Positions 12,626-51,139 of a stretch of DNA of 64,000 nucleotides are shown here, one piece after another. The position numbers and the translations under genes were made by a program. The stretch is from contig JAYWIR010000094.1 in assembly GCA_036172245.1 (NCBI GenBank), forward strand, positions 62,001-126,000. Reading direction: 5' to 3'. Within the stretch, counting starts at the first letter, position 1. Every line of letters begins with the position of its first letter. The notes under the pieces are model-generated. The model had not been told where the DNA came from. It did no database searches and worked only from the letters and a program-made list of their open reading frames with translations. This DNA is from Raillietiella orientalis. Its lineage: Eukaryota.

Positions 12626-13869
12626 TTGCGTGCTCCAGGGTGGACGTGTTTTCTCAATGCTTCTCGTGCCAGGAAGTTTCCCCCAGTGCAAGCGTCGTGT
12701 GGTTCGGTGGTCGATCAGGCAGCGATGCCTGACGCGACCACCAGGGATGGCCAGAAGGCAGCGACAACGCCGCCCCCAGAGGCGATGGAGAGCCAAAGGG
12801 CGGCGGCAACGTCGTCCCCAGAGGCGATAGGGCGCCAGGGGGCAGCGGCAACGTCGCTTCAAGAGGCGGTGAAGGTGGAAGCATCCGCCCCCACAGAAAC
12901 GGTCCACGCTGCAGCGCGGGCGTGGAGCGCCGTTGTGTCGGCGCCATCGCCTGCAGCCGCGGCGGAATTGTCAGCCTATGTGGAGGAGGGGTATAACCCC
13001 TCATTGTTCTACAAGGTAGGCAATCTCTATTCTTTAGAGAGCGCGCGCACCTTCTGGAAGGGCATGCGCGCTCTCGATGTGAAAGAGGAGGAGCTCAGCG
13101 CTATGACCATCCGCAGCGGGGGTCAGTACCTTGAGGTCATCTGCAAACAAGCAGAGCTGGCCCAACGACAGCTTAAAACCCCCGTGGTGATGGGGACGCG
13201 CAGACTCCTCCTCACTACGGCGGACCTCATCATGGTGGTCCACCTGTTAGGTGTTACCGAGCGGATGCGCAAGGAACAGGTTCGCGCCGCGCTGGAACAA
13301 TTTGGAACGGTCCACGCGCAGTGGACGAAAGTTAGTCCTTTCGAGGACTACACGGGGCTGTAACACGGTCTCACGGCTGCGCGCGTGACCGTTCGGGAGA
13401 ACTGCACACTTCCCCACAAAGTGGTAGTCGAAGGCGAAACCGTCGACCTCTGGTATGTGGGGAAGCCGAAATACTGTGGCTTCTGCAATACGTCGGGTCA
13501 CTTTAAAAAGAGGTGTCCCAACGTGCAGTGACAAGTATGCGGCACAATGGGTCACACGAGGGAAGTGTGCCTAAAAGCAGCAGTGCGGGTGGTTTCCAAG
13601 AGAAACCTTAAAAAACGTACCCGGCTTCTGCAGAAAAGGCTGGCGGCCAAAGCTGCTGCGAAGGCTGTGCCACCCGCGCCCAAGGCCCAGGCCGCACCCA
13701 AGACTTCGGCGAACAACGCCGAACAAGTCGAGGGAACAAGCCAGGAGCCTGGATGGCAGGTGGCTACGGCCAAAAAATCAAAGAAGGAAAGGAGGATGGA
13801 GAAAAAGCTCGCTTGCCGCCAGAAAAAACAGCAGGCAAGCGAGCAAATTAAAGAATGCAGCGTTCTCGT
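12626..13869 (+). mobile_element. Segment B': 5' UTR and ORF1 (H-type gag-like, two CCHC knuckles, disrupted), 3'-truncated
   Basis: Very close paralogue of H (34370-33170); CGFCNTSGHFKKRC and a second knuckle; in-frame stops; probable ATG at 12725. Confidence 0.9.
12757..12880 (+). repeat. Imperfect 42-bp (14-codon) tandem repeat x3 in the ORF1 N-terminus
   Basis: AATTPPPEAMESQR / AAATSSPEAIGRQG / AAATSLQEAVKVEA; only two units in H. Confidence 0.8.
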
Positions 13870-16312
13870 TTATTACCCGGTTGCGCCGGGACGTTTATTA
13901 TAATATCAACTGGGAACTGTGTTCCCAGGCAAGAAGAACACAAAATGTGAAGTAGATTTCCCGGAACGCAAATCAAGTACACTGAGATTTCGGAACGGGA
14001 GGGGGTGGGACAATAAATAACTAAATTGGGTGGGAGGGCGGGGATAGGGGTATACAGTCTAACTGTTCCTATTCTCAGAACCGGCGGTGAATGCCGCCGA
14101 TCTCCATCCTCACTTCTGCTCCAAGATGTGGCCACCCGGCAGCCATTTGCAGGTTGCAGGCTGCGGTGTCGGGGACCGATGTTGGGACTGCTCGCGTCTG
14201 CAATACGTGACGAGCTCTGACAATGGCCCGGACGCAGCAGATGATTGCGACGACCGCTCCAAGAGAAAGATCGCCACGCGTGTGGAAGCGGCGCATCCAA
14301 TCCAGTGCGGTGTGTCCAGGGTGCAGGAGCGCTGAAGACAGCCGCTGCCACAGATCCTGGAGGACATTGCACTTAAACAGCAAATGCGAAAGCGAATCCA
14401 CCGCTCCGCATTGGGCACAGTTCGGGGAAGCAACTCTCCCGGAAATCAGGTGCGCTTGCTGGTTGCAGTACAAACCCCAATGCAACAGCAGAAAAGCGTC
14501 CTGTTTCCATCGAAGGGGAAAGAGAGTCGCGTCCAAACACGCAGAAGGGACCACAAGTTCATCGGTGGGCACCACGAGGAGCTCACTCCACCGGAGAAGT
14601 CCCTTGGCCCGAAGGCGAGGAGTGGCAGCGTCTGCCACTTCGCAATTCCGCCAGCCGCCCAGCAGTCGGGTTTCGCTTGAGATTTCGCAAGCAATCTCCC
14701 ACCTCGCAGGCAGGTCACTGTCGTCTCGCACCATCAGTGCACACAGTGCTTCGGCGAGTTGCGTAGCAACTAGGCGTGTCCACTGGTCCTGGTCTTCCAG
14801 CACCTCCCCCACAAGACAGTATGGGTAAAGGTTCACGCAACGGAGTTCCAAACGGGACACATCCTGTTGCGCAGCCCATGACGATAAGGCTTCTTTCCTC
14901 CAGGCGTTCAAGTTCGTCGGCCGGCAGGAGATCCACTCATGATTTCCCAGAAGCGTGGCGAGCTGCTTCAAAGGGAAGCCGAATCCTCTCCGTGCGCGCT
15001 CCGTGCGCAGATGCAACGAACGTAGTCCGTCGCCACCCGTGCAGCGCTGCAGCAGCAGCCGCGCTGAAGCACACCAGGGAGTAGTCCAGAGATGCGCACA
15101 AAGTGCCAGCATGCGGAACTGCACTAGAAGTCCGATCCGCTCCAGCGTCAGGATGCCCAATCCTGCATCCCGTCGAGGAGCCGTTAAGTCCTTCAGGCGT
15201 ATCCTGGACCTCGCCGGTCCCCACTGGGCGTTACGCAACAGGCGTTGCGCCCGGCGCTTAGACGAGTAGGAAGGGGGACAAACAAAAAAGAGGGGACGGA
15301 GGTGGGGGGCAGCGAAAATGTTCCACACGAAGGACGGTTCCTACAGGAGAAACCTGCCGCCTTGGAACGGGCCCAGAGCAGTCTCGGCCTTGTGAAGGCA
15401 GTCCGACCACGCTTCTGCTGGACAGAAGGCGCCCAATGGAACGCCGAGGTACTTCAAGCACCTGCCCGTGGGGTTCCCCAGGCGGATCCAGTCGGAATGC
15501 CCCTCCCACGTAGAGCCAACCGGTACAACGGATTTTGTCCCGTTGACGCTCAGGCCCGCTCCCCGACGAATGAGCTCCAAGAAGTCCTCGAGCCTGGACG
15601 CCGGGATGGACATGGGCAGCAGCAGGAGAAGCTCGTTAGCATAGGCGGCCACAGCCGGTGTTCCCGGGCAGGAGCTAAGCAGGCTGGCCAGCGTCAGCCT
15701 ATACACCCTCAGCACTAACTTAAAGAAGATGCTGAAGAGCAGGGAGCTTAAGCTGTCTCCCTGCCTGATACCCCGCCGTATGGGAATGCCGTACACGTGG
15801 CGCCCGCTGAAAGAGATACAGCATAACGCGTGGCGCCAGCAGGAGCGCAAGTAGGCAATGAGGTGCGTCGGGAGGCCTAGGAGTCCCAGAAGCTCCAGAT
15901 GGAGGTCCTGGTTTACGCTGTCGAACGCTTTACAGAGATCGACGGGGACCGCTAAGGCTCCCGGCGTTCCATCGTGCCTTGAACACCGCCGCTTACCTTT
16001 GTAAGCGACGATTTCGGCTGCCTAATTCTGCTGCGCCACGCGCTGCTGCAACTGGAACCATGTTCGCGCGAAGAAGAGTTTCGCGTCCATGGACCGCCCC
16101 GGAACAGCATACGTCTGCTCCGGACTTATCAAGGACTCCGCGATTCTTCCCAGGCGCGCGACCCACAGCTTGGAGAACAACTTGACGTCCGAACTCACCA
16201 AGGTGTTTGGACGTCAGTTGCTAACGAGGCGCAAATCGCCGCCTTACGGCAGCAGCCGCACCTTTGCTGAGCGGAAAGAAGCGGGAACATCTCCCGTCTC
16301 ACGCATCAGCGT
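13870..16312 (-). mobile_element. Segment C: 3' part of ORF2 (RT from LMRETGDVPASF), 3' UTR and AATAAA-hairpin end
   Basis: ORFs 15341-15850 and 14075-15328 (GIRQGDSLS, YANE, CAQCGAVDSLSHLLFKC); end AATAAACGTCCCGGCGCAACCGGGTAA at 13873-13899. Confidence 0.92.
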
Positions 16313-16450
16313 CGGTCGCGTACGGATGTGCTTTTGCGTCGCTCCGCGGTAGATTGGCTCTTGTGTGTTTTTGTTCTGCTGTGCTTCTGTGCTGCAATAA
16401 GAGCAAAGAAGAACATCAGCCGCAAGAAGGGAACCCCACCTGCTCCTGAG

Positions 16451-23392: not shown

Positions 23393-24099
23393 GTCGAGCG
23401 CACAATACTTTGAGCCGCGGAGCAAGTTCACCGACTCTGCAGGAGAGGAGCGATCTCCCGACTGTCAAGGTGACTCCGTTGCCGCCTTTTAAAGGCGTGG
23501 CGAAAGCAACGCCCCCAGAGAACGCAGCGAAAATCCCGGAGGTTTCCGCAACTACTGTCGCGGAAGCCTTCAAAAATCGCGAAGGCGAATGGAAGGTTGT
23601 AAAGAGGAGCAAAGAAAAATCTCCAAAAAAAGCTCCGCAACCTCCATCCATGAGCTCTTTTAAAGGAAAAAGCAGTCGCGGGAATACGAAAATACGCGCG
23701 GCTTTTGACTCTTCCAAGGAAAAAGCCATGGCCTTCAACGCGTGAAAGTCCGCTTCTGTGACCGCCGAGAAGACCATTCCGGTGCAATCGGAAGGATGCA
23801 AGCGCACGTCTATCGTGCGAGCATGAGACTCCACAAAGGAGTCCGATAACGCAGCTGAACGACGCGTAACTCGCGCGGGAGCGAGCGCCCGCAGGGCTGA
23901 AGCCCTGAGGCGTAACACACTCGCCGCGGAACAAGGAGTGCTCACACCGGAACCCACAGGTTCTGCACCCGGGGAGGAGCACCCGATTACGTGCAGCACA
24001 GTTGAGGCCGGTGGCGACTGCGCCCTCCAGCCCGTCGTGCTGCTTACTGCCCGCTCGCCGGGTGAGGCGAGCACCACTGCCTCGCTTTCTCAGCCGTGA
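23393..24099 (+). pseudogene. E ORF1, C-terminal low-complexity part
   Basis: A/P/K-rich, EGEWKVVKRSK motif, ends SLSQP* overlapping the ORF2 ATG; internal stops. Confidence 0.75.
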
Positions 24100-27000
24100 T
24101 GAGGGCAATCGCGTCTTCTCGTCGTGTTGCCGTAACGTCTTGGAACGTCAACGGGCTCCAACACGAGGAGAAGAGGCGACTAGTGGCTCACGCTCTGCGC
24201 GCTTTCGACTTGACGCTCCTGCAGGAGATTCACAGCATCTCCGGAGAGCAGGCTGCCAAAATCGAACGGCGCGCGGGCGGAACGCTACTTTATAGGTGCG
24301 GCGTTGCACGTACGTGCGGTGTCGCTTTCCTCGTACGAGGAACTTTGGCGGGAGCGGTGCGCAGCGTTCGTTTCGACACGGAAGTCCGAGTGGGACTGTT
24401 TGTACTCAAGTGGTCCGACTCGATCGACCTTGTCGTAACCAACGTGTACGCGCCGAGCGGTGCTGGACGATGGGCCGAAAGGATTGAGTTCTTCGGTACC
24501 CTTCAAGGCCACTGGCTCACTCGATCTCACCCTACTGTGGTCCATCTCATTGCGGGGGACTTTAACGTCCACCTGCTTTCCGAGAATAGATCCCACAAAA
24601 GGGAAAAGTTGCTAGCGGAAGAGATGTGCGCGTCCGTGCACGCGTGCAACTTGTTCGCTAGCGACCCTGTTATCGCAGCAACGCCGGACCACGTATACCT
24701 GGATAAACACTTGCTCTGTCGAGTGGGTCGGAGAGGTCCCGTGCCGTCCGTGCTTTCAGACCACAACAGGCTCGAGTTCGAGTTGCTCCCGCCAGGGAAG
24801 GGGCCTCCAAACTGTTTTTGGAGGATGCCAGGAGACTGGCTAAGCCACCCGGAGGCGGCTGAGCATCTTCGCCAGTACCTCCTCGGCTTTGCCATAAGTG
24901 AGCTCGAGGACTGGAACGATCTGAAAAGATCGGTCCACGAGTTCTGCTGCCGGTTTCCCTTGCACCAGCTTCCGCGCGGCTTCGGAGAGGGTGTAGCAAA
25001 CAGCAGAGATTTTCTGCAGGCCCGCTCCTTTTCCAGGCGCGCGGACGTTGGTCGATTATCCGAGTACAAGGCCAAGGCCGAGCGCCAGGTCTGGCAGTCA
25101 GGGGCGACAGTTCTGCTCGACGACCAGGACCGGGAATGCTCGGCTCCAGCCGACGTGCGACGGATAGTAAGGCGCTATTACCCTTCTCTGTTTGCGGAGG
25201 CATCGACGGAACGCAGCCTCTCCCGGCTGCTTCTGTCGATTGATGCACCTGTTGTGGACGAGGAGGAACGGGCGCGTCTTGATGAGCCCTTCACGGCAGA
25301 GGAAATTTCCTCGGCCATCTCGGGGCTCAAGAGACATAAAGCTCCAGGCGAAGATGGGCTCCCCGCGGAATTCTTTCATTGTTTTGCGGCGGAGCTCATC
25401 CCCCTGGTGCTCCAACTCTCGTCGCTGATGCGAGACTCGGGCGATGTCCCCGCCTCGTTTCGCTCAGCGAAGGTGCGTCTACTGCCGAAAGGCGGAGATT
25501 TGCGCCAACTGAACAACTGGCGTCCGATCACATTAGTGAATTCGGACGTCAAGTTTTTCTCGAAACTTTGGGTGGCGCGGATGGGTAGGATCGCGAAATC
25601 CTTGGTAAGTCCGGAGCAGACGTACGCTGTTCCTGGGCGGTCCATGGACGCAAATCTCTTGTTCATCCGCACATGGCTGCAATTGCAGCATCGTGTAGCG
25701 GTGAATCGTCGTGCGGGGGCGACGCCTTCGATCTCTCACCGACGGAGGCGCGGGACGCGAAGGGAGACACCGGGAGCATTGGCGGTTGCAGTCGATCTGC
25801 ACAAAGCTTTCGATTGCGTGAACCAAAAGCTTCTTCTTGAGCTTTTGGAACGTCTGGGTCTTCCGGCATCCCTGTTGGCGTACTTGCGCTCCTGCTGGCG
25901 CCACGCGATTACATCCATTGTTTTCAGTGGCTGTCGCGTGTACGGCGTGCCGGTACGACGAGGAATTAGGCAGGGTGAAAGCTTAAGCCTGCTGCTCTTA
26001 AGCATCTATTTTGAAATGGTGCTGGAGGCTTACAGGCTGACGCTAGCCAACCTGTCGAGCTCCTGTCTAGGTGCGCCAGCCGTGCCAGCCTATGCCGATG
26101 ACCTGCTTCTCCTGTTGCCCATGTCCACCCAGGCGGCGTCGCTTGAAGACTTCTTTGAGTGGATTCGTCGCGGTGCGGGCGTGAGCGTTAACAGGAGTAA
26201 GTGTATGGTTGTTCCGGTTGGTGCGACGTGGGAGGGGCAGTCCGACTGGATCGACCTGAGGATCCCCACGGGCAGGTACCTCAGGCACCTTGGCGTGCCG
26301 CTGGGCGACTTCTGCATCTCAGAAGCGTGGTCGGACTGCCTTCGGAAGGCAGAGCGTGCACTTGGTCCGTTTTCAGGAGGCGAGTTCGTCTTGCCGGAAC
26401 GGGCCTGCATCTGGAACACCTTCGTTGCCTTCCTCCTCCGCCCCCTGTTTTTTGTTTGTCCACCCCCCCAGGAAGTCAAAGTCTGGGCGCAGCGCCTTCT
26501 ACGCAAAGCGTTGTGGGGCGCTGCAAGATCCCGTGTTAGACTTAAAGACTTGGTGGCGCCGCGTCAGGATGCAGGCTTGGGCATCCTCGACTTAAACAGC
26601 ATCGGACTGCAGGTGCAGTTCCGCATGCTGCGGCTCTGTGCCAAGCTGTGGTGTACGCCGTGGTGCTTACCCGCACGCCTTATACTGAGGCGCTGCACGG
26701 GAAGCAAGGGACTGCTTTCGTTGCTACCCCACTTTCGGCACACCAGAATAGGGTTTGGCTTCCCGCTGAGGCAGCTGTCCTCACTGCTGCAATCCCAAAG
26801 CTGGATCTCCTGCCGCCCCATGAACATTAATGCATGGCGGCAGGAATCTTTTTCATCGTGGGCAGCTTCCGAAGGAACGCGCCCGGAAGATCTTCGACGT
26901 CTGCGTCTTCTCCTCAGTCATCAAATGGACGAAGTCATGCAGGACAAGAAGTTGTCGGATCGTCTGACCGCCACACCACTCGCCGCAGCGCTGTCTGCCC

Positions 27001-27654
27001 TCAAAGCAAGCAACGACGGTTGCCTACCGGCGGAATGGGAGTTCTCCTGCAAAATAGCGGGAGTCAGTAAGCTCCTCGGCAGCTGGACGACAAAGGAGCT
27101 GGTGCAAGCCGCCACACCTCGGAATCGGGCGAAGGGACTGCTTCGGTGGAGCGAACATTTAAGTGTGCCCCCCGGAGAGATAGTGGTTCCCCCCGTTTGC
27201 TTGGACAGCTCCGTGTTCCCCCTTAAGTGGAAACAAGATGTGCTGCTCTTTTTACATTGTGCATTTCACTGTAATAGGCAGCGAAGCATCGTTTCCGGGG
27301 GAGCTGCTTTGCCAAACTGTTTAAGGTGCGGAGAGATCGAGTCTTTTCCGCACCTTTTGCTGGACTGCGGTGACCTCCGTGAACTGTGGCGAAGGCTCAC
27401 TTCGGCCATCATGCCACAAGGAGGCACTGCCATCGAGATGCAGAAATGGACTTTCGGTTGGCGCGATTGTCGCAACCATGTGTTGCGTTCGCGCCATCGT
27501 GAAGGCCCGCTACAACCTGGAGTTGTCATCGCAGCGAAAGGAGGCTCACCTGCTTGCAGCTCAATTCATGGAGAAGGCTTCAAGGTGGTCTCATCTTCGT
27601 GACAAGGTGAATGAGGACATCACCGGCATACATCGCTGGTTTACACACCTTTGA
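24099..27654 (+). CDS. E ORF2: APE endonuclease + reverse transcriptase + C-terminal Cys/His motif; open for about 1,120 codons, frameshift near 27450
   Basis: SWNVNG, LLQEIH, NVYAP, AGDFN, DHVYL, SDH, KAPGEDG, WRPITLVN, DLHKAFD, GIRQG, YADD (26091), HLGV, CLRCGEIESFPHLLLDC. Confidence 0.95.
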
Positions 27655-27977
27655 GAACGGCGTAATCCGGTGATCCCTTCGACCTCTCGCCCACCCATAA
27701 CCCGTCCCCGTTCGCTCGGTAAAATTTCCGGTGCCCATGCTTTTATCCCCGTGTATTCCAGAGCGATCCCAAAGACTCTTATCCCGTCCTCCTTATTCAT
27801 TGTTTTTATTTTATTTTGGTTTCTTTGTGTTTCCCGCCCCCCCAAACCGTTCACAAATCTGTTACTCTGGCCTGCGTGCCAGCAATATTCTCTTCATTCT
27901 TATTCAGTCGTCGGTTGAGAGTTTGGTTCCCAACTGGCTTATTTTGTATAATTGCTTTTTTTGGTTATGTTATATGG

Positions 27978-28004
27978 AATAAACGCCCCGGCGTGACCGG
28001 GTGA
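27978..28004 (+). terminator. Conserved element 3'-end signal: AATAAA + CCCGG-N5-CCGGG hairpin (type example)
   Basis: Homologous motifs at 1006-1033, 10545-10571, 13873-13899, 28554-28584, 36454-36484, 40873-40903, 43858-43882, 45439-45469, 46232-46264, 49931-49959, 51458-51488, 54118-54146, 61696-61725; some are decayed. Confidence 0.85.
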
Positions 28005-28008
28005 GAAA

Positions 28009-28553
28009 TCTCTTGGGCTTGTTCTGCAGAGATCACGTGGATCTCCTGCAGCAGCGTAAGGTCGCAGGACTCGAGAAGGGCGGCCACGTCTCGTCTCCTG
28101 CCGGCGTCTGTCATGCCGTTCACGTTCCAAACAGCGATGCGCAGACGACGGCGGGAGGAGATTCCCGGCATTACTGCAGGGAAGATTAAGGTGTGGAGGA
28201 GCCCTCCTCTTGCGAGGCGGGCGGGATGTTTATGGGGGTTTCGGCCTTCTCAGGCACCTGAGGCACCTGTTCGGCCTCCACCCCCTCCATCCCCTCCGTG
28301 TCCGCGCGTGGGAGTCTCTCGGGCGACGGGTCCCGAGTGTTTCCCACGCTCATGGCATTCTCGCTTGCGGAAGCCATCTCTTCCCCTTCGACGAGGGAGA
28401 CGAGCTTCCTTGGCTTTGTGGACCTACGTCCAGCCTTCTTGCGCGGTGCCGCGGAAACGGAGGCTGCGCTTCCGGCCTCCACCTCGGGGTCGGAAGTGGG
28501 GGACTCCTGAGGGGAGGCCGGACGCCTTACGGCTTTCTTGCCAGCCTTGGAGG
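28009..28553 (-). mobile_element. Segment F: ORF1 C-terminus + APE N-terminus; continuation of H beyond the G insertion
   Basis: SKAGKKAVRRPASP...; MPGISSRRRLRIAVWNVNG..LLQEIHVISAEQA; H+F are contiguous in the uninterrupted copy V (about 52740-52800). Confidence 0.88.
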
Positions 28554-28785
28554 TTTACACCCGGGTACGCCCGGGGCGTTTATTTTTTAAAAAAAAGAAA
28601 AAAAAAAAAACAACTCTACATCCGCGGTACAAGGCCCCGCTCACGGCCATATGCACTGGACCTGCCGGGACGCCGGGACGCAGCCCAGCGTAGCGTTCCT
28701 CAGCAGCGAAGGGGGATGGGGATAAAACCAAAAGAAAAATAAAAAACATAAACAGACAAAAAGAAGTTGGAGGGCAGGGAAGGGA

Positions 28786-31700
28786 TCACTGAACGCTGTG
28801 AGGAGGGCCCATCCGTTGAAGGAAGCCCTTGAAGTCCGTCCGTATATTCCCCAGTTGGGGCCATCCGGCAGCTCTCCGCATGAAGCGTTGGGCGTATGGG
28901 ACGACATCCCTCGCGTGTGGACCCACTCCTTCGGTATTGGCGTCGCTCCATGCCGCCACGATGCCACGGACACAGCACAAGGCTGCGATGGCTGCGGCTG
29001 GCTGCAGTGCGTCCTTCACGAAGAGGGGCCGAAGAACGTCTCTGGGGGTGCTGCCCGTAGGGAGCCCTCGGGTCGCCCCGAACCGTTCCCAGAGGGGTCG
29101 GATGGCAGCACAATCCACAATAAGGTGGGGAAGCGACTCCCGCTCCCCGCACCTGGCACACGCAGGATCCACAGCTCCCCTCGTCCAGTGGAAGCGGCGC
29201 GCGTTGCAGGGTAGACCCCAGTGCAACAACAGCAACGCCGACTCTTGCCACTTAAGGGGCAGGATCCTGGATTCCTTTAATACCGGGGGCCACTTCAGCA
29301 CATCCGTAGGGATGGCGAGCAGCTCGCCCCATCTCATTAGTCCACGCGGCTGGACGCTCGGGGTCGTGGCGTCCGCCAGTTCTCCTGTGGTCCAGCCGCT
29401 TAACATCTTCTCCCTGCCTGCGATCTGGCAGGTGACTTTCCACCTCGGCTTCTGGCAATCCTGAAGCGCCCTCAGGAGGTAGGGCATCGCCGTAGCAAGG
29501 AGGGTCGTCAACGCCCACCTGCGACTCCGAGGAAATTCGAGTATTTCCCGCAGGGTGCGGTTGGCGTATGGGCCGATTCGCAGGCAGTTCATGTGGTTTT
29601 CGCTCCTCCGGTTCAGCTTAGCCCATGTGCCAGCAGACTCCACTAACCAGGCGGAGGAGTTGGCAAGGCCACAAACCATCCAACCGTTCGTCTTCGCCAA
29701 GGTTGCTATGCGTCCGAGCATAAGGCCGCATCTTCGGATCTTCCGGCCAGGGCACAGAAGAAACGACGTGAGTCCTTCGCATCGGGACACACGCCTGGCG
29801 AGGTGGCGGGCCGGAACGCACCAAGGGGTGCTCCACATCTTCGCTGCGATGGCGAGGGTTCGCCACCGCAAGCTGGATTTCCACGCGCTCCAGCGTCAGG
29901 AGGCCAAGGCCGCCGTCCCGACGCGGAGCGCACAAGTCCTGCAGAGGGAATCGGGGCCTCCCCTTGCCCCAAAGGGCGATGCGGAGGAGGTCTTTCGTCC
30001 TCTTTTTAACTACTCTTGGGGCGGGGCAAACAAGAAGCAAGGGGCGGAGGATGGGGGCCGCGAAGGCGTTCCAAACCGCGGCCCGTTCCGGCAAGTGAAA
30101 CTTGCCTTCCAGGAACGGGCCGATCGCCGTCTCGACTTTTTGAAGACAGCTGGACCACGCTTCCGCAGGGGAGTAGTCACCCAACGGCACACCAAGGTAC
30201 TTGAGGCACCTCGCCGTGGGGATCCCCAGACGGACCCAGTCCTGCTGCCCTGCCCACGCCGCACCTACTGGCACCACCGACGACTTCGCCCTGTTGACCT
30301 GCAGTCCGGTCCCACGGCTGAGCAGATCGAAGAAGTCTCCGACCGCCTTCGCCGGGGTGGACATAGGTAACAGGAGCAGAAGGTCGTTGGCATAGGCTGC
30401 TACGGCGGGCGTGCCGGGACACGAGCTAGGTAAGGAGGCCAAAGTCACCCTGTAGGCTCTCAGCACCAACTCAAAGTAGGTGCTGAAGAGCAGGGGACTC
30501 AGCCTATCTCCCTGCCTGATGCCCCGCCGCACCGGCACGCCATGCACCTTCTGACCGCTGAAACAGACGGAAATTATCGCATGGCGCCAGCAGGAGCGCA
30601 GGTAGTTGATCAAGGAGGGTGGGAAGCCCATGCGACCCAGGAGCTCCAACAAAAGCCCCTGGTCAACACAGTCGAACGCCTTATGGAGATCGACTGCGAG
30701 CGCTAAGGCCCCCTTCCCCGCCCGGGAGTCCATTCCCTGCCCTGCTGGCGGCCCTAAAGTGGGGTTGCCGATTTTTCCTTTCCCTTCCTTTTGACACCTC
30801 TGCGCGTGCATCCACGTGCTCGCGAAGAAGAGGTTGGCATCCATACTTCGCCCGGGAACAGCATATGTCTGCTCCGGGCTAATAATGGATTCTGCCACCT
30901 GCCCCAGACGCGAAGCCCATAGCCCGGCAACCAACTTGGCGTCCGTATTCACAATCGTGATCGGACGCCAGTTGTTCAAATTCCTAAGGTCTCCCCCTGT
31001 CGGAAGGAGCCTCACTCTGGCTGACCGAAACGAGGCGGGAACATCGCCTTCGTCTCGGATCAGCCTTGTCAGCTGAAGCAGCAGGGGTGCCAGCTCTTCC
31101 GCGAAGCTCTGATAGAACTCCGCGGGCAAGCCGTCTTCCCCTGGAGCTTTCCGACTCTTGAGCCTTTTGATACCGGCGAGAATTTCGCCGGTGGTAAAAG
31201 GCTCATCGAGGCTTAACGACTCCTCCTCCTCTATTGCCGGGGCACCATCCGGAAGCAAGAGCCGAGAGGCATCTTGATCCGGGGGCGCCCTGGCGTAAAG
31301 GGAGGAATAATAACTCCGCACGAGATGCCGTACCGACGCCGGGGACGAACATTCCCGTCCCTGGTCGTCCAGCAAGCTGGCCGACCCGGATTGCCAGGCT
31401 TGGCGTTCGGCCCCGGCGCGGTACTCGGCCAGGCGACGGACATTAGGGGTTCGCTCGTACCTACGGGCCTGTAAATAGGCCCGATGGTTGCGAGGACCCT
31501 CGCCGAATCCGGAGGGCAGGCGGTCCAGGGGGAACTGCTCGCAGAATGTTCGGACCGATTCCTTAAAAAGGTCCCAGTCTTGGAGATTCCGGAGCGTGAC
31601 GCCTCTCAGGTATTCGCGAAGGTGTTCCTTCGCACCTGAGAGTCGCGTCCGGTCCCCCGGCAGACGCCAGTCTGTGGATGGCGGTCCTTTGTCGCGAGGC

Positions 31701-31925
31701 CCCATCTCGAAAATTAACCGGGAATGGTCCGACAACGTTGACGCAACCCTCCCCCGTTTGCCGACCCGTGAACACAGGTCAGCGTCGAGGAAGACGTGGT
31801 CGATGCTGCGGACCATTCCCCTCTCACCTGCGAACAAGCTGCGCGCACGCATGGCGGCGCACAACTCGTTCATCGCGTTCACCTGTGTTTCCGGCTCACC
31901 TGTCAGCAGGCGGAGATTGAAATCC
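28786..31925 (-). pseudogene. G ORF2 lacking the APE N-half; frameshift near 29875; YAND instead of YADD
   Basis: ORFs 29618-31930 and 28786-29871 with all RT motifs and CARCGERESLPHLIVDC. Confidence 0.92.
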
Positions 31926-31940
31926 CTCAAGCTGCCATCC

Positions 31941-32975: not shown

Positions 32976-34370
32976 GGAGGGGGCTGGCTGCAACGAGGCT
33001 GGCAGCTCCTCCGCGGCTCGCGCGAAGGCTACGTCATCGATGGTGGTGTCGATGACGGACGCCGCCGCCGGCTTGCTCCCCTCGCTGTTGACTGTGTCAA
33101 CAGAGATGAGGTCGTCGGTAGCGGCGAGTTGTTTCCGGCAGCGTTCGACAACATCGAGAACGCGTTCGACAACGACGCTGCATTCTTTAATTATTGCGCT
33201 ATCCTGCTCTTTCTTCTTCTGTTGGTAGGCGATTTTCTTTTTCATCCTCCTCTCCTTCTTTGATTTTTTGGCCTTTGTCACTTTCCACCCAGTCTCCTGT
33301 TCGGCTCCCTCAACTTTTTCTGCGTTGGTCGCCGGGGTCTCGGGTGCGGCCTGGGTCTTGGGCGCGGGTGGCACTGCCTTCGAGGCAGCTTTCGCCGCCT
33401 GCCTTTTCTGCAGAAGCCGGGCGCGTTTTTTAAGGTTTCTCTTGGAAACCACCCGCACTGCTGCTTTCGGGCACACCTCCCTCGTGTGGCCCATTGTGCC
33501 GCATACTTGGCATTGCACATTGGGACACCTCTTTTTGAGGTGGCCCGACGTATTGCAGAAGCCACAGTATTTCGGCTCCCCCATATACCAGAGGTCGACG
33601 GTTCCGCCTTCTACCACGAGTTTGTGGGGAAGAGTGCAGCCCTCCCGAACGTTCACGCGCGCAGCAGTGAGGCCGTGTGGCAGCCCCGTGTAGTCCTCGG
33701 AAGGACTTACTTTCGTCCACTGCGCGTGGACCGTTCCGAACTGTTCCAAAGCGGCGCGAACCTGTTCTTTGCGCATTCGCGCGGTTACGCCTAACAGGTG
33801 GACCACCATGCTGCGGTCCGCCGTAGTGGGGAGGAGCCTGCGCGTCGGCATCACAACGGGGGCTCTAAGCTGTCGTTGGGCCTGCTCTGCATGTTTGCAG
33901 ATGACCTCAACGTACTGACCCCCGCTGCGGATGGTCATAGCGCTGAGCTCTTCCTCTTTCACATTGAGAGCGCGCATGCCCTTCGAGAAGGCGCGCGCGC
34001 TCTCTAAAGAATATAAATTGCCTACCTTGTAGAACAATGAGGGGTTGTACCCCTCCTCTACATAGGCCGACAATTCCGCCGAGGTTGCAGGCGATGGCGC
34101 CGACACAACGGCGCTCCACGCCCGCGCTGCAGCGGGGACCGATTCTGTGGGGGTGGATGCCCCCACCTCCATCGTTTCTGGGAGCGACGTTGCCGCCGCT
34201 CCCTGGCTCTCCATCGCCTCTGGGGGTGACGTTTCCGCTGCTCCCTGTCCATCCCTGGTGGTCGCGTCAGGCATCGCTGCCTGATCGACCACCGAACCAC
34301 ACGACGCTTGCACTGGGAAAGACTTACTGGCACGAGGAGCACTGAGAAAACACGTCCACCCTGGAGCACG
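32976..34370 (-). mobile_element. Segment H: 5' UTR and uninterrupted ORF1 N-terminal two-thirds
   Basis: First half of the 810-aa ORF: RAWSAVV, YNPSLFYKVGNL, CGFCNTSGHLKKRC, CQVCGTMGHTREVC. Confidence 0.9.
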
Positions 34371-36484
34371 CAAGGCGGTCGACTGCGTGGACCAGGAGCT
34401 CCTACTGAAGCTCCTGGAACGCTTGGGATTCCCGGTCTATTTGCTGACCTACCTGCGATCCTGCTAGCGCGACGCGCTCATCCAGATGTTTTTTGGTGGA
34501 CACACCGTGCACGGCGTACCAGTGCGACGCGGCATACGGCAGGGAGACAGCCTGAGTCCCTTGCTCTTCAGTACCTGCTTCGAGTTGGTACTGAGAGAGT
34601 ACAGGGAAACTCAAGCACACCTGCCTCGAGAATATCCCGGTATGCCCGCGGTGACAGCATATGCGGACGACCTACTGCTGCTGCTCTTTATGTCCATTCC
34701 GGCATCGGCGGCCGAGGAGTTCCTCGACCTGTTAAGTCGGGGAACCGGACTTGAAGTGAACAGGGCGAAGTCGTCCGTCATGCCAATCGGTGCGGCGTGG
34801 GCAGGGCAGCCGGACTGGGTCCGCTTGGGTATCCCCACGATACGGTACTTCAGGTACCTCGGTGTACCAATGGGTGATTATCTCCCTTCGGAAGGGTGGT
34901 CCAGGTGCCTTCAAAAGGTAGAGACGGCGATCGGCCCGTTCCAAGGCGGTAGGTTTTTCCTGCCAGAACGGGCCGTGGTGTGGAACGCAATCGCAACGCG
35001 CCTCCTCCGTACCCTGCTTTTTGTTTGTCCTACCACCACAGAAACTAAAAAGCAGACGAAGAACTTACTAAGGATTGCCCTGTGGGGAAATGGGTGGGCC
35101 GGATTCCGGCTTGAGGACTTGAGCGCTCCGCATAGGGATGCCGATCTCGGCCTCCTGATGCTAGAGTGGCTGGCGCTCCAGCTCCAGTTTCGGTTACTCG
35201 CCCTAGTGGCGAAATATTGGAGTAGCAGTTGGTGCGAGCCCGCACGTCTCCTCGTCGTGCAGGCTACAGGCACGGTGGGACTGTCATCCTACTTTGCGCT
35301 CCTTCGTCGCCGCCAAGTCGGTCACTGCGGGCTGCAGCTGCGAAGAGTGGCTGACCAGATCAGGAAGAACGCGGAATTGCTTTGCTGTCGCCAGGTTAAC
35401 GGACCTACATGGCTGCAGGAATCGGTTCAGACGTGGGCAAAAAGCAACCAGCAACGCACCGAAGAAGGGCAGAGACAATTCTTCGCCCGTAATGACCGCC
35501 TGACCCTACGGGAGGTCCTATACAACCCCCAAAAACAGGCGTGGGCAAGAAAAACTCCCCTCGCTGCAATGCTTATTCCGCTCACGGAACATTTAAAAGC
35601 AACACTGCTGCGAAATTGGATGTTTACGTTAAAATCTCCGTACGGAGAAAAAGATCGGGGAATGGAAAACGGGAATTCTCTGCGATGCTGCGGCCCGGAT
35701 TACCACCCCTATTGGACTTTCGCGCTGGGGCGAGCTGCTGAATGTTCCGCTGGAACAATTAAAGTGGCCCTCGGTGCTGATGAACCCTCCACCCATCCCT
35801 TAAAATGGCAGGAGTCGGCGCTATTGTTGCTGCATTGGGGACTCCCCTGCAACGCCCGCCGACACCATTGGACCTGGGGAGCGGTGAGTCCTAATTGTGC
35901 GAGGTGTGGATAACGGGACTCACTCACTCACGTCCTTTTGGATTGTGTGGCTCTCCGGCCCCTTTGGAACCGTTTTGCCGCGGCATTCGGTAACCCCTGT
36001 GGCAACCCCAGAGACGCAATCAGATCCCTCTTCGTTTGCGACGCCCTTCGGCCCTCGGCCTCGTTAGCAGCTCTGTGCTGCTTTCGCGGGATCGTCGCTG
36101 CATGGAGCAAGGCAACGAGAGGACCACGCGATAGAGGTGCCGTCCAGTGCGCAGCCGAATTTATGAGGACGGCGACAGGATAGACCCATCTGGATTTAAA
36201 CATCCAAAAAGAGCTTGCCGGCATCCTGCAAAGGATGTAACCGTCCCACAGCAGACTGTGATCCCTTCTCGTGCCCCCCAGATCTTGATTTTATATATTT
36301 CTTTTTGTTTTATATTTTGTTTTGTCCTTGGCCCCTCTGCTGTCGTGATGGACCGTTCCGCAATACGAACCGATGACCCGGCAGATTTAATTTTGTATAC
36401 CAGTGCGTGAACGGACCACCTGGTCAGATACCAACGTTTGTTTTATTCGAAAGAATAATAGCCCCGGCGCAACCGGGTGAAAAA
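34369..36484 (+). mobile_element. Segment I: 3' half of ORF2 from KAVDCV, 3' UTR, hairpin end
   Basis: ORF 34486-35913 (GIRQGDSLSPLLF, YADDLL, CARCG); end at 36454-36484. Confidence 0.92.
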
Positions 36485-38928
36485 CGAGCTCCCGAACAAT
36501 TAAGGTCTGGAGATGCTGCCGGTGGTGCTCCGCAGCCACCGCATTCCTCAACCAGTCGGCCGGCAACCTCCAGACGTGCGTCAGAAGGCCCTTGCCTGGC
36601 GGGAGCAACTCGAACTCGAGCCTTTAGTGGTCGGAAAGCTCGGACGGCACAAAACCTCTTCGACCCACCCGACAATGCAGATGATCGTCGAGGCACACAT
36701 GGTCCGGCAAAGCAAGCATTTCGGGATGGTCGGCTAGCAAATTCAAGGCGTGCACGGACGCGCACACCTCGTTCACCAGCCGTTTCTCCCGCCGACGGCG
36801 AGACTCCTCGGATAGCGCGTGGACGTTGAAGTCCTTGGCTACGAGGTGAGCCACGTCGGGGCCGTAGTTGCTGAGCCAGCGGTCGCGCAGTCTCTCGGAA
36901 AACTCCAGTTTCTCGGTTTGACGCGTGGAACCGCACAGCGCGTACACGTTCGTGACGACAAAGTTGATCGATACGGACCACTTCAGGACAAGTTGGCCCA
37001 CACGATTTTCCTCGTCGAAACAAACGCTCCGCACCGCTCCTGTCACCCTGCCCCGGTCAAAGAATGCGACTCCGCAGGTATTCTGGGAACCCGACATCCA
37101 ATGGAGCGTCCCGCCTGCGCGAACTCGCAGATGGGCCGCTTTCTGCTCAAAGAGTGCGTGAATCTCCAGCAGCAGGGCCAGATCAAAGTCGCGCAAGACG
37201 TTGACAACCAATCGCCTCTTCTCGTTGTCCTGCAGCCCGTTGACGTTCCAACATGCCACTCGGACGCGACGGAAACAACCGAGACCGCGCATTGCTGCTA
37301 CGGACATGGAGATGCGTTCCTTGCCCCTTCCGGCGAGGCATCAGCCGGGAGCGCGGCGGATGAGGTAGCGCAAGCGCTTCCTGTCGCCGCCGCGCCGCTC
37401 GCGGCTGGCTCGGTGGAGTCGAGGACCATTGCCTCGGGCTCCGAGGAGCATCAGGAACCGTTCGCAGCATCAGGCTCTTGCCTGGCAAGTTTTGGGTTGC
37501 GCGCAGCCCTGGCCTTGACCGGGGCTTGGCGAGCCTTAGCGCTGCCGTCGGACTCCACCTCGGAGTCCGAATTCCGCGCGCGCGGCGGGCGTTTCGCCTG
37601 CCTCTTTTTTTGCTGGCAGCCCGGAGCTGGTGCAGCACTCTTAGAGGGTGCCTTCGTCGCCGATCCCCCTTTCGGGGTCACGGCTTCGGCAGCTCCCCTC
37701 TTGCCTCGGTTGTTTGCGACGGCGCGCGCGGCGGCAGCAGAGGCTTTTTCTTGCGCCTTCCTTGGCGCGCGTGGCTGCCTCTTCACCCGCCTACCTTCTT
37801 GATCGGGAAGTGGAAAGGATGGCGCGGTTTGCGCTCCTTTCTCCCGACGAAGGTCCAGCCATCCTCTCCGCTTTCAGGGTTTCCACGGTTGGGCGCGAGG
37901 GCTTCCAGGGTCCTTCGCATCCTTTCCAAGGCCTCGGATACGGCGATGGAGGCCAGTGTCTCCTTCGCCACTTCTGCCTTCGGCACCTGCTTACCGGAAG
38001 GTGCGGGCAGAGTAACGGGATTCTCGGGGGTCGCGCGTGGCTTTGCAGCCTTTGCTGGCGTTCGGCCTGCAGTGGCCAACTTGCTTGTCGCGGGGAAAGG
38101 GGCGCGCGACTTCTTTTCGGACGCTCCGGTGGACTTCCCGGGCGTGCCACCGCTATTTCTCTCCGGAGCGAGAGCAAACGGAAGCGGCGGTTTTGCAGCC
38201 TGCCCGATGTTATCGGCGGGCTGGGTCGCTCGAGGCTTTACGGAAGCAGCTTTCTGAAGCTTCTTGTCCTTTCGCGCGGGTGTTTGTGGAGCATTGCTCC
38301 GGGAATCGCCCGCGCAAGCGGACTTTTCACTTCTTCGCTGCGAATCCTCGTTCGCGCCGAATTTCTTCCTTGACGACGAGGTGGATGGAATCCGCGCGGA
38401 CGGCGATGTTTTGGGGAGCTTTCTCGCCCTCCTTTTTCGTTTTAGCTCGGCGCACTCGTTAATCGAGTGGCGCAGCAGCTTACAGTGTCGGCAACTGCGT
38501 GTTGGGCACTTCCGCGAACGGTGGCTCTCCTTCTTGCAGTTGCCGCAAGCAGGGGTTGGCCCGGCAAACCGGAGAGAAACGACGACGTCACCGAGGAGGA
38601 TTTGCGAAGGCATAAGCCTCCGGTCGTCCATGGTGACGCGCGCAGTTTCGAGTCCGCAAGAGAGGTGCGCGACTTTATTGATCAAATTCGCGCGCCTCCA
38701 CATTGCGTGCACTGTGGCGAACGCCTCGAGTTCAACAATGATGTCGCGGTCCGTGATTCTCGGCCGAATGCCCGGGAGCTGTACTACAAACGATTGGTCC
38801 AGGGCCGACCGGACGATCTTCTTATCCTTGATTTTCAGGGGCGCTCGCAGTAGGCGCTAGACGAGGGCTGCATCCTTGCAGTGCACCTCTCAATGGCCTA
38901 CCGCGCTCACTGGCATAAGTGCCAGGAG
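36485..38928 (-). mobile_element. Segment J: 5'-truncated E-type ORF1 + APE
   Basis: ORF 37783-38712 (CGNCKKESHRSRKC, CRHCKLLRHSINEC) and ORF 36624-37307 (CWNVNG, DFN, DHV, SDH). Confidence 0.9.
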
Positions 38929-40903
38929 ATCGTCCCTGCTCTTTAGCGCCTTTTTCGAATTAATGCTGAGAGAGTACAGGGAGACTGGCGCATCTGCCGC
39001 GCGATTGTCCCGGTACGCCTGCGGTTTTGGGCATACGCGGACGATCTTCTGCTGCTGCTCCCTATGTCCTCCACGGCTTCGGCGGACGTGGAGTTCTTCG
39101 ACCTGCTGCATCAGGGAGCCGGACTTACGGTGAACAGAGCGAAGTCGTCCGTGATGCCAGTTGGTGCGGCGTGGGCAGGGAAGCAGGACTGGGTCCGTTT
39201 GAAAATCTTCACGGTGAGGTAATCTAATTACCTTGGTGTGCCGTTGGGAAACTACCTCCTGCAGAAGCGTGGTCCGGCTGCCCCCAGAAAGTAGAAACGG
39301 CGATCGGCCGGTACCGAGGTGGCAGGTTTTTCCTTCCTGAACGAACCGCGGTTTAGAACACGTTCGCGGCTCCTTTCCTCGGCCCATTGCTTTTTATTTG
39401 CCCCCTCACAGAGAGGATTAAAATGCGGAAAAAGAACCTCCTCTGTATCGCCCTTTGTGGCAAAGGGAGGGCCCGAGTCCGGCTTGAAGACTTGTGCGCT
39501 CCACGCAGGGACGGTGGACTTGGTCTCCTGACGTTGGAGCGCATGGAGCGACAGCTCCAATTCAGAAAACTTGCCCTTGTGGCAAAGTTTTGGACAGCAC
39601 CCTGGTGTGCAACTGCAAGACTCCTTGCTCACAGGGCAACCGGCTGCTTCGGATTGACTTCAATCCTGGTAGCCAACGAACGCAGCCTGAACCATTGTGG
39701 TTATCAGCTGCGGGATTTGGTTGCCCTGATGAGAGACAACCGTTGGATCTCCTGCATCCCAGCGGACTGGACTACCTGGCTTCAGGAGTCCGTTTCCGCA
39801 TGGCCGAAGATCAATGGCACCAGCGATGAGGACTTCTCCCGCCTCCGCAAAGGGAGGCACGCTGGTCAGCCACTCCAGGAGATCGCCTCCAACCCACGGA
39901 ATCTTCTGTGGGCTTTCTTTACCTCCCTTGCCCCTGTGCTGCCCTCCCTCAGGAAAGTTCAAGACAGCCACCAAAAGGCTTCGTAGTTAGTGTCCTGCCT
40001 CATCGGAGGCAGGAAAAATTCACTGAAGGCGTGGACGCCGATGGAACTAGCGGACGCTAGTACCCCGAGTGTCCCTCCGAACGGACGTTCACGCTGGGGC
40101 GCGCTGCTCGGTATACCTCCAAAGGAGGTGGAGTGGCCCCCAGCGTCATGATACAACGGCACCCTTCCCCTGCAGTGGCAGGAGACGGCGTTGCTTCTGC
40201 TCCACTGGGGACTTTTAAGCAGAGCACGCCTGTTTCCCTGGACAACGGGAAATGTGGATGCTAGTTGTGCAGAGTGCGGGGAAAGGGAGACCTTCCCTCA
40301 CTTGATTCTGGAGTGTGTTGCCCTCCGCGAAATGTAAGACAGACTCTCGTCGATCCTCAACATTCCTGAGGGTGACCCGAAAAATTTATTCAGACGCCTC
40401 CTGACGCAAGACGGCTTGCCAGCCTCCGCGAGCGTAGCAGTGCTCTACTGCATACGCGGTATCCTGGAGAAGTGGACCGCGTCTAGGAGAGGAAGGACCA
40501 GCCGGAATGCCATCCACTGGGCTGCGATCTCCTTGGAGAAAGCGTGCCGTTGGCGCCGACTTCGAAAACATTTGCCTGCACTTGTTCGCATCCGTGACCG
40601 GATGCAAAGGCCTGCTCACGGCGCACCGTGATCCCCTCCCTCCCTCTTCCTCCCCAAAAACATTGCCGTCCAGACGTTTTTCTTTTTTTTGTTTTGTTTT
40701 CTTTTTATTCTTCCCGCCTCGGCGCCAGTAAAGGACCTTATCGGCCTCCGGGTCGGTAAGGACAAGTGCTACTGAACTTCTCTACTGAACTTCTGACGTC
40801 CTAAAAAAAAAAAAAAAAAAATTTTAACAACAAAGACCTTATTACAACATTTTGTAATCTCAAAATTTTAGTAATAAAAGCCCCGGCTTACCCGGGTTAA
40901 AAA
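38929..40903 (+). mobile_element. Segment K: degraded 3' half of ORF2, 3' UTR (13-bp tandem duplication 40769-40794, A-run near 40803-40820), hairpin end
   Basis: LLFSAFFEL, YADDLL near 39033, CAPRRDGGLG, CAECGERET; end at 40873-40903. Confidence 0.9.
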
Positions 40904-43249
40904 CCTTGCGCATTTCTGCATCTGTCAGCCAGTCGCGCTTTAGGTACTGGAAGAACTGAGTTCTTTCCGCGTACCCTTTGCTACCGCTCGGAGCATACGC
41001 ATTGGTAACGAAGAGATCGATCGTGTGAGACTAGCATAGAATCATCTGTCCAACACGACCGTTGTCATCGGAGCGTACGTTTCTCACAGAGGCCTTCACA
41101 GCTGGCTTTAGGAAGAACGCGACACCGCAGGAGTTGCGGTCGCCGCATCGCCAATACAACCGACCACCTGCGATCCTTTCGATCTCCTCGACGTCTCTTG
41201 CAGTGATCACGTGGATCTCCTGCAGGAGCGCCAGGTCGAATTCTCGCAAGGTGTCGGCTCTTTCTCACCTGTTGCCGTCATCGCGCAGCCCATTGACATT
41301 TTAACAGGTCACGCGGATCTGTCGGCGACAGGCGAGCCCAGAGGGTTATTCCTGGGAACGTGGCAGTGCGGCTTCCGCTACCGTATCGGGAGGGACGTAT
41401 GGAGAAGGAAATACATCGTGCACCGGTTCTCCCTCCTCAATGGAGGCCGATTCCAATACAGGCCTCATCGGAATGGGCAGGCAGGTATCTCCTACCTGCA
41501 CTTCCAACTCCATAAGGTCCGATTCGCCGGCTGGGCCGGTCGGTGGAAGGGGGAGGTTGAAACCTACCTGCTCCACCTCCTCCAACGGGGTTGACAGCTG
41601 CTCTGTCGCGGGGAATGGGATATTTCCTTTCTCCGTTCCCACGCTGATGGCTTCCCTTCCGGCTGCCGGTGCGTCCCCATCCTCCTTCTTGGTCGAGAGT
41701 CGCCTGCTAGGATTCTTGGATTCGCGTTCCGTCTACTTTGGAGGCGCCTTCTCGGAGGAGGACGCACAAATGGCATCCGGATCAGTATTTCCTTCTTTGG
41801 GTGCCTTCACCGCGGCCGGCCTCCTCAAGGATTTTCGCGCCGGGATCTCGCGGCCGACGAGTTCAGCTTCGAGCTGTAACAGTGCCTGCTCGAAGGTGGC
41901 GTCCTCGATTACGGACAGCGCGTCGTAAGGCTCCTCCTCTGCTTTCAGAGAAAGTTCTTCTTAGGAGATCGCGGCTTCCACGCAAACGAGGTAAGGGATA
42001 TTTCCTCTAGTGGCGACCTCTATGACCACCACGCGCTTCAAAGTGACCGAGCTTTCACGGAGTAGTGCGCGGCGCTCTCTCCTATTAAAAGGTTTCGCCG
42101 CTGGTTCCGATTCCGTGGCTTCGGTTTTCTTCGGTTTCTTTGGCTTGACCGTCCGCCAGCTTTCCTCACGGTTGCCTGTCCAGCGCCGTCGGAAGTTTTC
42201 TCGACCGGCATTTGTTGAGAGGGTTCGGAGTCTGGCTTCTGGGTACGCTTTGCAGTAGCCTCCTTGGAATTCGACATTTTTTCCGCGCGTTTTCCCTGAG
42301 CTTTTTTCAAAGCGGGGCGATCCGGAGTTACGCGCTTTGAGCACACTTTCCGGAGGTGGCCCTTCTCTCCGCATGAGAAAAACTCGATGTGGGGGAACCG
42401 TTTTCTCTGGTGTCCTATGGCATCGCAGTGTCCGCAGTACTTGGGTTTCCCCACGTACCAGACATCGACCTTTTCGTTGACGCCGTCTAGCTTGTGGGGT
42501 AACACTGTTTTCATTCACGGTTACACGCGCTGCGGCCATGCCACTAAACAGCCTCCCATAGGATTGTAACACGTTAGGCTTGCTCCAGAGCGCGTGAACC
42601 GTGCCGAACTTGCTGAGTTCCTCCTGCACGCCCTTCGTCGACATGCGGAGGGTAACTCCCGCGAGGTGCGCTACTACCGAGCAATCCTCAGTTACAGGGT
42701 TCTGCCTTCCAACGTAATGGGGGCGTTCAGCAGACGGTGAGCAAGGCTTGCATCCTTGCAACTCAACTCCACCCGCTGAATCCCGCTCAACGCTAAAAGA
42801 CCTTCCATCTCTTCTTTTTTAACATTAAGCCGCTGTTACTCCCTCTCGAAGTTGCGAGCGGTATTTACAAGAAGGATATTGCCTGACTTTTAGAATAGGG
42901 ACGGCTTGTACCCTTGTTCTTTATAGGCTGTTGGTTCGTTCATGGCAGCTGCGGATGGTGCTGCAGCCACGGCGCTCCAAGTCCTCGTCGTTGGCGAGGA
43001 TGGCTCCGAGGACACGGTTGCACCCTTTTTCAAGGGTACCAATGCCCTTGCCTCCGTGGGGGCGATCGCCCCTACCACCATGGGTTGGGGAGCGGAACTG
43101 GCCTCTCCCACTCCAATCTCCATCGCGATGTCCGCTGGCATTTCTTCCATGGGGCACCGACGATGCGCCACACACTCTAACAAACGAAAGGAAATAAAAG
43201 AAACTTCCCAAGCTGGAGCTGTAGGAGTGCAGGAAACACACGTCTGCTA
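40904..43249 (-). mobile_element. Segment L: 5' UTR, frameshifted G-type ORF1 and APE N-terminus
   Basis: MEEMPADIAMEIGVGEASS.., WYVGKPKYCGHC, FDLALLQEIH. Confidence 0.88.
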
Positions 43250-51130: not shown

Positions 51131-51139
51131 GCCGCCTCC

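Follow-up and report, generated by a model that had tools for sequence, protein, structure and literature searches.

What decides where a LINE lands when most of its neighbourhood consists of other LINEs? In a stretch of the Raillietiella orientalis genome (GCA_036172245.1, contig JAYWIR010000094.1, positions 62,001-126,000, forward strand, 64 kb; hereafter the window), a sequence-only reading had proposed that each 3'-UTR subfamily reuses its own antisense landing site in the ORF2 of a related element, either by subfamily-specific targeting or by amplification of composites of tail and flank. Target-specific LINEs are known that insert into ribosomal genes, into telomeres, into small RNA genes and into a few DNA transposons. 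Our analysis confirms the lineage-specific antisense junctions. The reading that we prefer, with a probability of roughly 0.72, is lineage-specific targeting of sibling ORF2 by TPRT at a lineage-specific nick. The support consists of two to three events per site within one 64-kb window, which is a small number.

The window and its LINE family

ORF2 fragments were mapped by tblastn and by a nucleotide profile derived from the complete copy, and every junction was read directly. Contigs of three DNA sequencing runs, aligned to 32500-52499, yielded short and sparse pieces that span none of the junctions and carry no information on the junctions or on expression. The window is mostly 54-61% GC and forms a LINE island, a dense pile of non-LTR retrotransposon fragments interrupted by two AT-richer blocks of non-LINE DNA:

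2469-10455, 40-46% GC, without LINE similarity and without long frames
59878-61629, 40-46% GC, without LINE similarity and without long frames

Within the window, no repeats common to both blocks, or to a block and the island, were found. Each block has a plus-strand ORF2 cut at about codons 1110-1123, with the UTR missing, at its left edge, and at its right edge a short host stub and then a tail in antisense.

Judged by its predicted domains, the island is composed of L1-superfamily LINEs, with a zinc knuckle in ORF1 and an AP-endonuclease and a reverse transcriptase in ORF2. The sole complete ORF2 lies at 24066-27602 and has 1178 codons. A Pfam search of this 1178-aa ORF found Exo_endo_phos (residues 25-233, E 3e-11) and RVT_1 (residues 474-716, E 7e-17). 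Among solved structures, human LINE-1 ORF2p came closest (E 5e-42); the L1 endonuclease also matched (E 5e-5), and R2 proteins scored far lower. The nearest database relatives in a protein search were 22-25% identical and carried no family name. A zf-CCHC domain was detected in ORFs 5' of ORF2 fragments, and the window has nine places with ORF1 homologues that carry a zinc knuckle. About 17796-24008 on the minus strand is occupied by a second, distant LINE family, with 27-31% amino-acid identity to the main-family ORF2. It has its own ORF1 and a different 3' hairpin. It lies antisense, flanked on one side by an ORF1 fragment and on the other by the 5' end of E, the element with the complete ORF2; no duplication was found around it.

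Fourteen 3' ends share AATAAA, a 5-bp GC stem with a 5-nt loop, and then T-G-A-n-A-A-A. In the 14 aligned tails, 88.6% of the cells of the stem pair, and sliding the partner by 1-3 columns lowers this to 17-67%. A single compensatory change was seen (C-G to A-U in the tail of element U), and the observed pairing was reached by 21 of 500 shuffles. A metagenome scan with a degenerate consensus of the hairpin returned 0 stretches.

Same-strand internal deletions without an insert are common, and were found in g, h and the f8 element. Three such copies were read, and none has an insert at its scars:

55471-54574, minus strand, ORF2 codons 81-287 running directly into 1028-1119
58696-59877, plus strand, ORF2 codons 103-165 running into 688-944 and these into 1062-1123
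50502-51107, minus strand, the middle of ORF1 running into ORF2 codon 122

Tail lineages and their landing sites

BLAST comparison of the last 330 nt of the 14 hairpin-bearing tails gave four multi-copy groups, {E,O}, {I,A',g}, {R,AB} and {N,S,U,F}, and the single tails C, K and D. Nine of these tails and their hosts, in the order of the groups, are as follows.

E: 24066..28007, plus strand, open ORF2 24066-27602 (APE + RT) and 3' UTR; last tail base 28007, adjoining T'
E 3' end: AATAAA 27978-27983, hairpin CCCGG/CCGGG 27987-28001, short A-rich tail
T', host of E: 28008..28553, minus strand, from about 350 nt upstream of ORF2 to codon 65/66, frame intact; colinear with 52767-52232
O: 44803..45468, plus strand, 3' fragment with ORF2 profile codons 1092 to the end and UTR; last tail base 45468, adjoining T
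T, host of O: 45469..45962, minus strand, from about 300 nt upstream of ORF2 to codon 65/66, with stop codons
I: 34369..36485, plus strand, 3' part from the RT K-A-x-D codons to the tail; 5' end adjoining the head of element Xb; last tail base 36485, adjoining Ih
Ih, host of I: 36486..37324, minus strand, ORF2 codons 1 to about 280; upstream ORF1 to about 38982
A': 1006..2052, minus strand, 3' fragment of the I/A'/g tail group; last tail base 1006, adjoining the plus-strand host 163-1005
A2, host of A': 163..1005, plus strand, ORF2 codons 1 to about 280
R: 46233..49025, minus strand, ORF2 codons from about 365 to the end and UTR; last tail base 46233, adjoining f5
f5, host of R: 45959..46232, plus strand, ORF2 codons from about 270 to 364, ending in AADV
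AB: 61696..63627, minus strand, 3' part with profile codons 649 to the end; last tail base 61696, adjoining a 66-nt host stub
Host stub of AB: 61630..61695, plus strand, about 22 codons with an AADV end; AT-richer non-LINE DNA directly to the left
N: 43858..44802, minus strand, profile codons 964 to the end and UTR, degenerate hairpin; last tail base 43858, adjoining f1
f1, host of N: 43231..43857, plus strand, ORF2 codons from about 92 to 303, LPLGF end
S: 49027..49960, plus strand, profile codons 967 to the end and UTR; last tail base 49960, adjoining f8
f8, host of S: 49961..50504, minus strand, ORF2 codons from about 122 to 306 (LPPGFD); ORF1 piece directly upstream, to about 51107
U: 51108..51489 (start approximate), plus strand, 3' UTR fragment with tail; last tail base 51489, adjoining f10
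f10, host of U: 51490..52411, minus strand, ORF2 codons from about 4 to 306 (LPERF); upstream ORF1 to about 54116

Both direct reading and the nucleotide profile map place the E and O tails at the predicted EQAQ(E/D)I, at ORF2 codon 65/66, where the hosts end in EQAQ(E/D) and the two first bases of Ile. The I and A' tails had been placed together at 'EL' codons. The shared position holds, at about codon 280 and at the same aligned nucleotides of both hosts (host-sense AGCTCG^), but these nucleotides translate as E-L only in the host of I and as S-S in that of A'. R and AB meet their hosts at AADV as expected, at codon 364, with host-sense GCCGACGT^ in both. The start of f5, the host of R, precedes the I/A' site by about 20 nt. 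The N, S and U tails had been said to fall within about 5 nt after LPxGF; they end 0-4 nt past the Phe codon of LPxGF or LPERF, at about codons 303-306. Comparison of the site sequences found no consensus common to the four sites, in agreement with the earlier statement. No site is common to two tail lineages, and several intact copies in the window carry unoccupied versions of each site.

All nine junctions are antisense to the host ORF2. The proposal that each subfamily reuses an antisense site of its own is thus upheld at these nine junctions but not for two further group members, F and g, which lie elsewhere and in sense. The group's own site is used by 9 of the 11 tails of the four multi-copy groups, and 13 of the 15 tails adjoining LINE sequence, including the tail of the second family, are antisense (binomial p 0.0037). 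Random landing was simulated on a 6.4-kb element in either orientation with events assumed independent. The six coincident within-group pairs that we observed were reached in 0 of 2,000,000 simulations; the maximum was 4, which occurred once.

It might be asked whether elements choose these places at all. Fragile or nick-prone spots in ORF2, together with rearrangement or assembly error, could gather junctions at which the match to the tail lineage arises by chance. Many junctions in the window are inexplicable as clean insertions, the internal deletions described above are common, and codons 155-165 gather several types of breakpoint. Against this, sites are never common to two lineages while 9 of 11 tails share a within-lineage site, and the clustering lies beyond all 2,000,000 random placements. 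The pairs also differ by 14-40%, hence they are not repeats of one assembly error. We consider this explanation highly improbable.

Separate events or copied composites

The junctions could coincide within a lineage if one chance insertion per lineage had been followed by multiplication of the tail together with its antisense ORF2 piece, by segmental duplication or 3' transduction. Homology crosses the junction unbroken in every pair, as copied composites would have it. A host broken by an insert is dead, and therefore copies of a composite should differ equally at the three codon positions. The hosts of the N/S/U and I/A' tails do not. Their dN/dS is 0.32 for f1/f8, 0.25 for f1/f10, 0.29 for f8/f10 and 0.21 for Ih/A2. 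Third positions show an approximately twofold excess of differences, with chi-square values (2 df) of 17.0, 24.7, 15.4 and 11.2, respectively. The inserts gave dN/dS of 0.39 for N/S and 0.42 for I/A', and E/O is near-neutral with a third-position chi-square of 0.3. Because near-neutral pairs such as E/O lack the third-position excess, a strong bias of mutation towards third positions is not at work. From these codon patterns, the N/S/U hosts and the I/A' hosts are taken to have diverged under purifying selection, which is impossible for dead fragments, so these hosts are not dead composite copies.

Simple duplication would also leave tail and flank equally diverged, and for two pairs the sides of the junction are unequal. 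In E/O the tail side is 75.4% identical and the flank side 84.0% (z 3.5), and in I/A' the order is reversed, with 68.5% on the tail side and 56.0% on the flank side (z 5.5). Ih is closer to E than to A2. The E/O pair differs in age as well. E versus O differ by 25% and T' versus T by 16%. T carries stop codons and T' is without them, and O and T are decayed while the ORF2 of E is open. Among simulated ORF2 copies, the open frame survived 1% neutral change in 265 of 1000, 2% in 63 of 1000 and 5% in 0 of 500. Since E is open despite this divergence of 16-25%, E with T' and O with T are not equally aged copies of one composite. E is young, and its lineage may have been active recently. We had considered that T and T' end on the same 5' base, which would favour duplication, and rejected this. 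T' extends 50 nt beyond T at its 5' side and is colinear with a third element.

The R/AB pair behaves differently. Its dN/dS is 0.60, and its stop codons (5 and 4) are about as many as expected from approximately 7% neutral decay of each, a load compatible with descent from one ancestor. R and AB could, on these values, be a single copied composite. The 66-nt flank of AB is 75% like the flank of R, while the inserts are 86% alike (z 2.4); this lower flank identity is a hint, and the sole one, that R and AB were independent.

Some further observations suit copied composites. The 66-nt stub of AB and the 88-nt stub of another insert, C, adjoin non-LINE DNA, as transduced flanks would. L1 3' transduction yields a tail with a piece of its former flank, and may explain AB and its stub; it leaves unexplained the flanks that diverged under selection, and likewise a young insert whose host is intact beside an old pair. 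N and S start at most 8 nt apart in ORF2 coordinates, but by rough arithmetic a start shared within 8 nt among seven short 3' fragments has about a 10% chance. Closer tails occupy closer hosts, which is the expectation of hitch-hiking and also fits targeting by epoch. Amplification of composites, the second possibility offered by the sequence-only reading, is contradicted for E/O, I/A' and N/S/U by dN/dS, by junction-side identity and by the open frame of E, and is compatible with R/AB. As an account of the whole pattern it is improbable. The first possibility, subfamily-specific targeting, gains support in three of the four groups from selection on the hosts, from unequal identity across the junction and from E being younger than O and T. 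The same evidence shows that the N/S/U, I/A' and E/O junctions are separate events in diverged hosts.

Exceptions and single tails

Two members of multi-copy groups and three single tails lie at other places:

F: 28554..31927, minus strand, tail of the N/S/U group, closest to U; adjoins T' in sense
g: 54117..55471, minus strand, tail of the I/A' group; adjoins the 5' end of the f10 element in sense
C: 10544..12630, minus strand, antisense at about ORF2 codon 75; 88-nt host stub 10456-10543 on the plus strand
K: 38934..40903, plus strand, antisense at about ORF2 codon 155; host Kh 40904-41371 on the minus strand
D: 13869..16314, minus strand, antisense in ORF1 of Xa (12611-13868, plus strand)

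The tail of F lies about 350 nt upstream of the T' ORF2 (junction 28553/28554) and not at LPxGF. We asked whether its 50-nt flank was a short LPxGF host piece; this was rejected, as the flank belongs to T'. The g junction (54116/54117) retains host-sense CTCG^. The same-strand junctions of F and g could result from template jumping or from sense-oriented targeting. For D, an uninterrupted version of the landing site is present in Xb.

A plus-strand run of seven A (56410-56428) without the usual hairpin abuts about codon 162 of ORF2 in the minus-strand element g3, within the breakpoint-rich codons 155-165, and is probably the tail of another LINE type. Just past the 5' end of AB, a plus-strand motif at 63655-63690 resembles the full-length 5' ends of the f10 element, Xa and Xb, which suggests that AB itself was split by a full-length antisense insert extending off the window.

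Insert boundaries and nesting

None of the 14 candidate insert boundaries has a target-site duplication of at least 8 nt. In the window, no host was found to continue colinearly past the 5' end of any insert. Target-specific LINEs usually leave a target that goes on past the insert, with a short duplication or deletion, and the window does not show this pattern. A reading as clean insertions must therefore assume several deletions. Secondary loss is plausible, since same-strand internal deletions are common in the island. Between 28.5 and 54 kb the strands alternate, with a 5' part followed by a 3' part with its tail. The alternation can be read as Russian-doll nests in which one half was lost by deletion, although the parse is partial. 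One partly parsed example is a host made of F and Kh that received K, with the Ih element in K, I in the Ih element and Xb in I, leaving a single scar at 31927-31944. The N/O junction is incompatible with a clean nest.

One type of 5' junction is precise. Two X-type elements (12611, plus strand, and 34436, minus strand) share their 5' end, and in both cases this head joins its host, C or I, at one and the same nucleotide of the RT K-A-x-D codons. Identity is about 86% between the X parts, with the first ~100 nt nearly identical, and about 55-68% between the hosts C and I. This shared junction nucleotide speaks for the targeting reading.

Several ways of joining pieces were considered and set aside. 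The f1 and f5 pieces do not join into a single host around an insert; about 30 codons are present in both, and there the two sequences differ. A single long element running from Xa to E is unsupported, as identity between the ORF1 that follows D and the corresponding part of Xb is only about 35%. Kh and F as halves of one host with a duplication gave, by eye, a match of only 9 of 14 bases. Twin priming yields an inverted 5' segment without a tail, and this topology does not match the head-to-head junctions.

One open frame of 831 codons (31941-34436, minus strand) contains two tandem ORF1-like units (residues 17-423 and 522-778) and runs directly into codon 161 of the F ORF2, with about 160 endonuclease codons missing. 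It is either a chimera or the product of a deletion.

What sets the site

T, T' and f10 are 77-84% alike, and T and T' were hit at codon 65 by O and E while f10 was hit at codon 303 by U. Because one type of host is hit at different sites, and because unoccupied sites are present, the choice of site follows the incoming lineage and not the host. We propose that TPRT would start from a nick in the sense strand of the ORF2 of a sibling LINE, at a short sequence specific to the lineage, the nick probably being made by the lineage's own endonuclease. The new copy would then lie antisense, with its tail against the host codons 5' of the nick. Pairing of 0-4 nt between the last bases of the RNA and the nicked strand may help to fix the spot, as with CGAG and CTCG. 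Within the window, a tail can be linked to its own endonuclease for lineage E only. In I, A', g and D (4 of 4), CGAG directly follows the A-rich tail and stands opposite host-sense CTCG^, and g and D lie at unrelated places. This correspondence points to a short motif that is recognised or paired.

A larger part could be given to the RNA. A read-through or target-like RNA end might pair with the nicked new host, and the site would then be inherited with the 3' end and its flank instead of being set by the endonuclease. The site does track the 3'-UTR lineage, and CGAG stands opposite CTCG^ at three unrelated places. A need for downstream target sequence in R1Bm and possible 3'-end annealing in SART1, both described in passages of PMC7265360, would also agree with such guidance. 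The read-through pairing that the sequence-only reading gave as an example finds no support in the window. No longer piece of older flank appears to have been copied in, and the junction-next 30 nt are no more alike than the flank farther out. In f1/f8 these 30 nt match at 18/30, against 25/30 and 22/30 in the following bins; Ih/A2 match at 16/30, and T'/T are uniform along the flank. At a junction, no more than 4-5 nt can be assigned to tail and host alike. Few bases are common to the host sites of S and U, so a long guide from one would pair poorly with the other. Guidance of this kind is unlikely, and so, to the same degree, is an address that resides in the RNA instead of the protein, inherited with the tail and changeable by mutation of tail or flank. 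If it were true, these LINEs would be naturally re-addressable RNA-guided retrotransposons that build LINE-only islands by mutual hits. In our judgement, nicking by a lineage-specific endonuclease, perhaps sharpened by pairing of 2-4 nt at the RNA end, is the most economical reading.

Comparison with known systems

Insertion of LINEs into other mobile elements is described for the Tx1 clade in the passages of PMC4494074 on target sites. Tx1 lies in Tx1D, Tx1-Mar and SINEU lie in Mariner-N4_AMi, and Tx1-8_Crp and Tx1-4_AMi target LTR elements. Families of Tx1 occupy family-specific positions and orientations in Mariner, at about 240 in the opposite and about 830 in the same direction. The same passages name the endonuclease as the main determinant and raise hitch-hiking as a rival, which was excluded by independent copies (PMC4494074). 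The LINEs of the window resemble the Tx1 clade, as described there, in being APE-type LINEs at fixed spots in another mobile element, with sites that have no shared sequence, and in their family-specific position and fixed orientation; the likeness is one of behaviour (PMC4494074). They differ in that their targets are coding sequences of sibling LINEs of the same superfamily, in that at least four lineages in the window each have a private site inside 300 ORF2 codons, and in that they end in a hairpin and a short A-rich tail.

Nesting and clustering are described for the green-algal L1 clusters Zepp and ZeppL in parts of PMC3446292 and PMC8226300. Compared by the form of the island, these clusters and the window are alike, both being GC-rich L1-type LINEs in nested islands distinct from their surroundings. 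Unlike our description, those parts of the two accounts give no lineage-specific landing nucleotides and no antisense rule (PMC3446292, PMC8226300).

For R1Bm, a passage of PMC7265360 reports that downstream target sequence in the RNA is necessary for accurate initiation, and for SART1 it states that the 3'-end bases may anneal to the target. A site-specific nick, TPRT and recognition of 3' UTR structure are, according to this source, features of R1Bm and SART1Bm (PMC7265360), and the same features are proposed for the window. A few target-like bases at the RNA end may likewise set the start in both cases; in the window this pairing is deduced solely from the ambiguity of the junctions. Unlike the LINEs of the window, R1Bm and SART1Bm, which are APE LINEs specific for rDNA and for telomeres, are described as targeting multicopy genes or repeats of the host (PMC7265360). 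A literal search of open-access text found no published LINE lineages with private antisense sites in sibling ORF2.

Implications

In the window, several sibling lineages seem to find a safe place to insert in the coding sequences of one another, each antisense and at a nucleotide of its own; this would account for the self-assembly of LINE-only islands. These are mobile elements that inactivate their own relatives. They also form a natural series of close relatives with different addresses, in which the determinant of the address can be looked for, either on the surface of the endonuclease or at the 3' end of the RNA. Target choice by LINEs would thereby become testable through swaps of parts between lineages.
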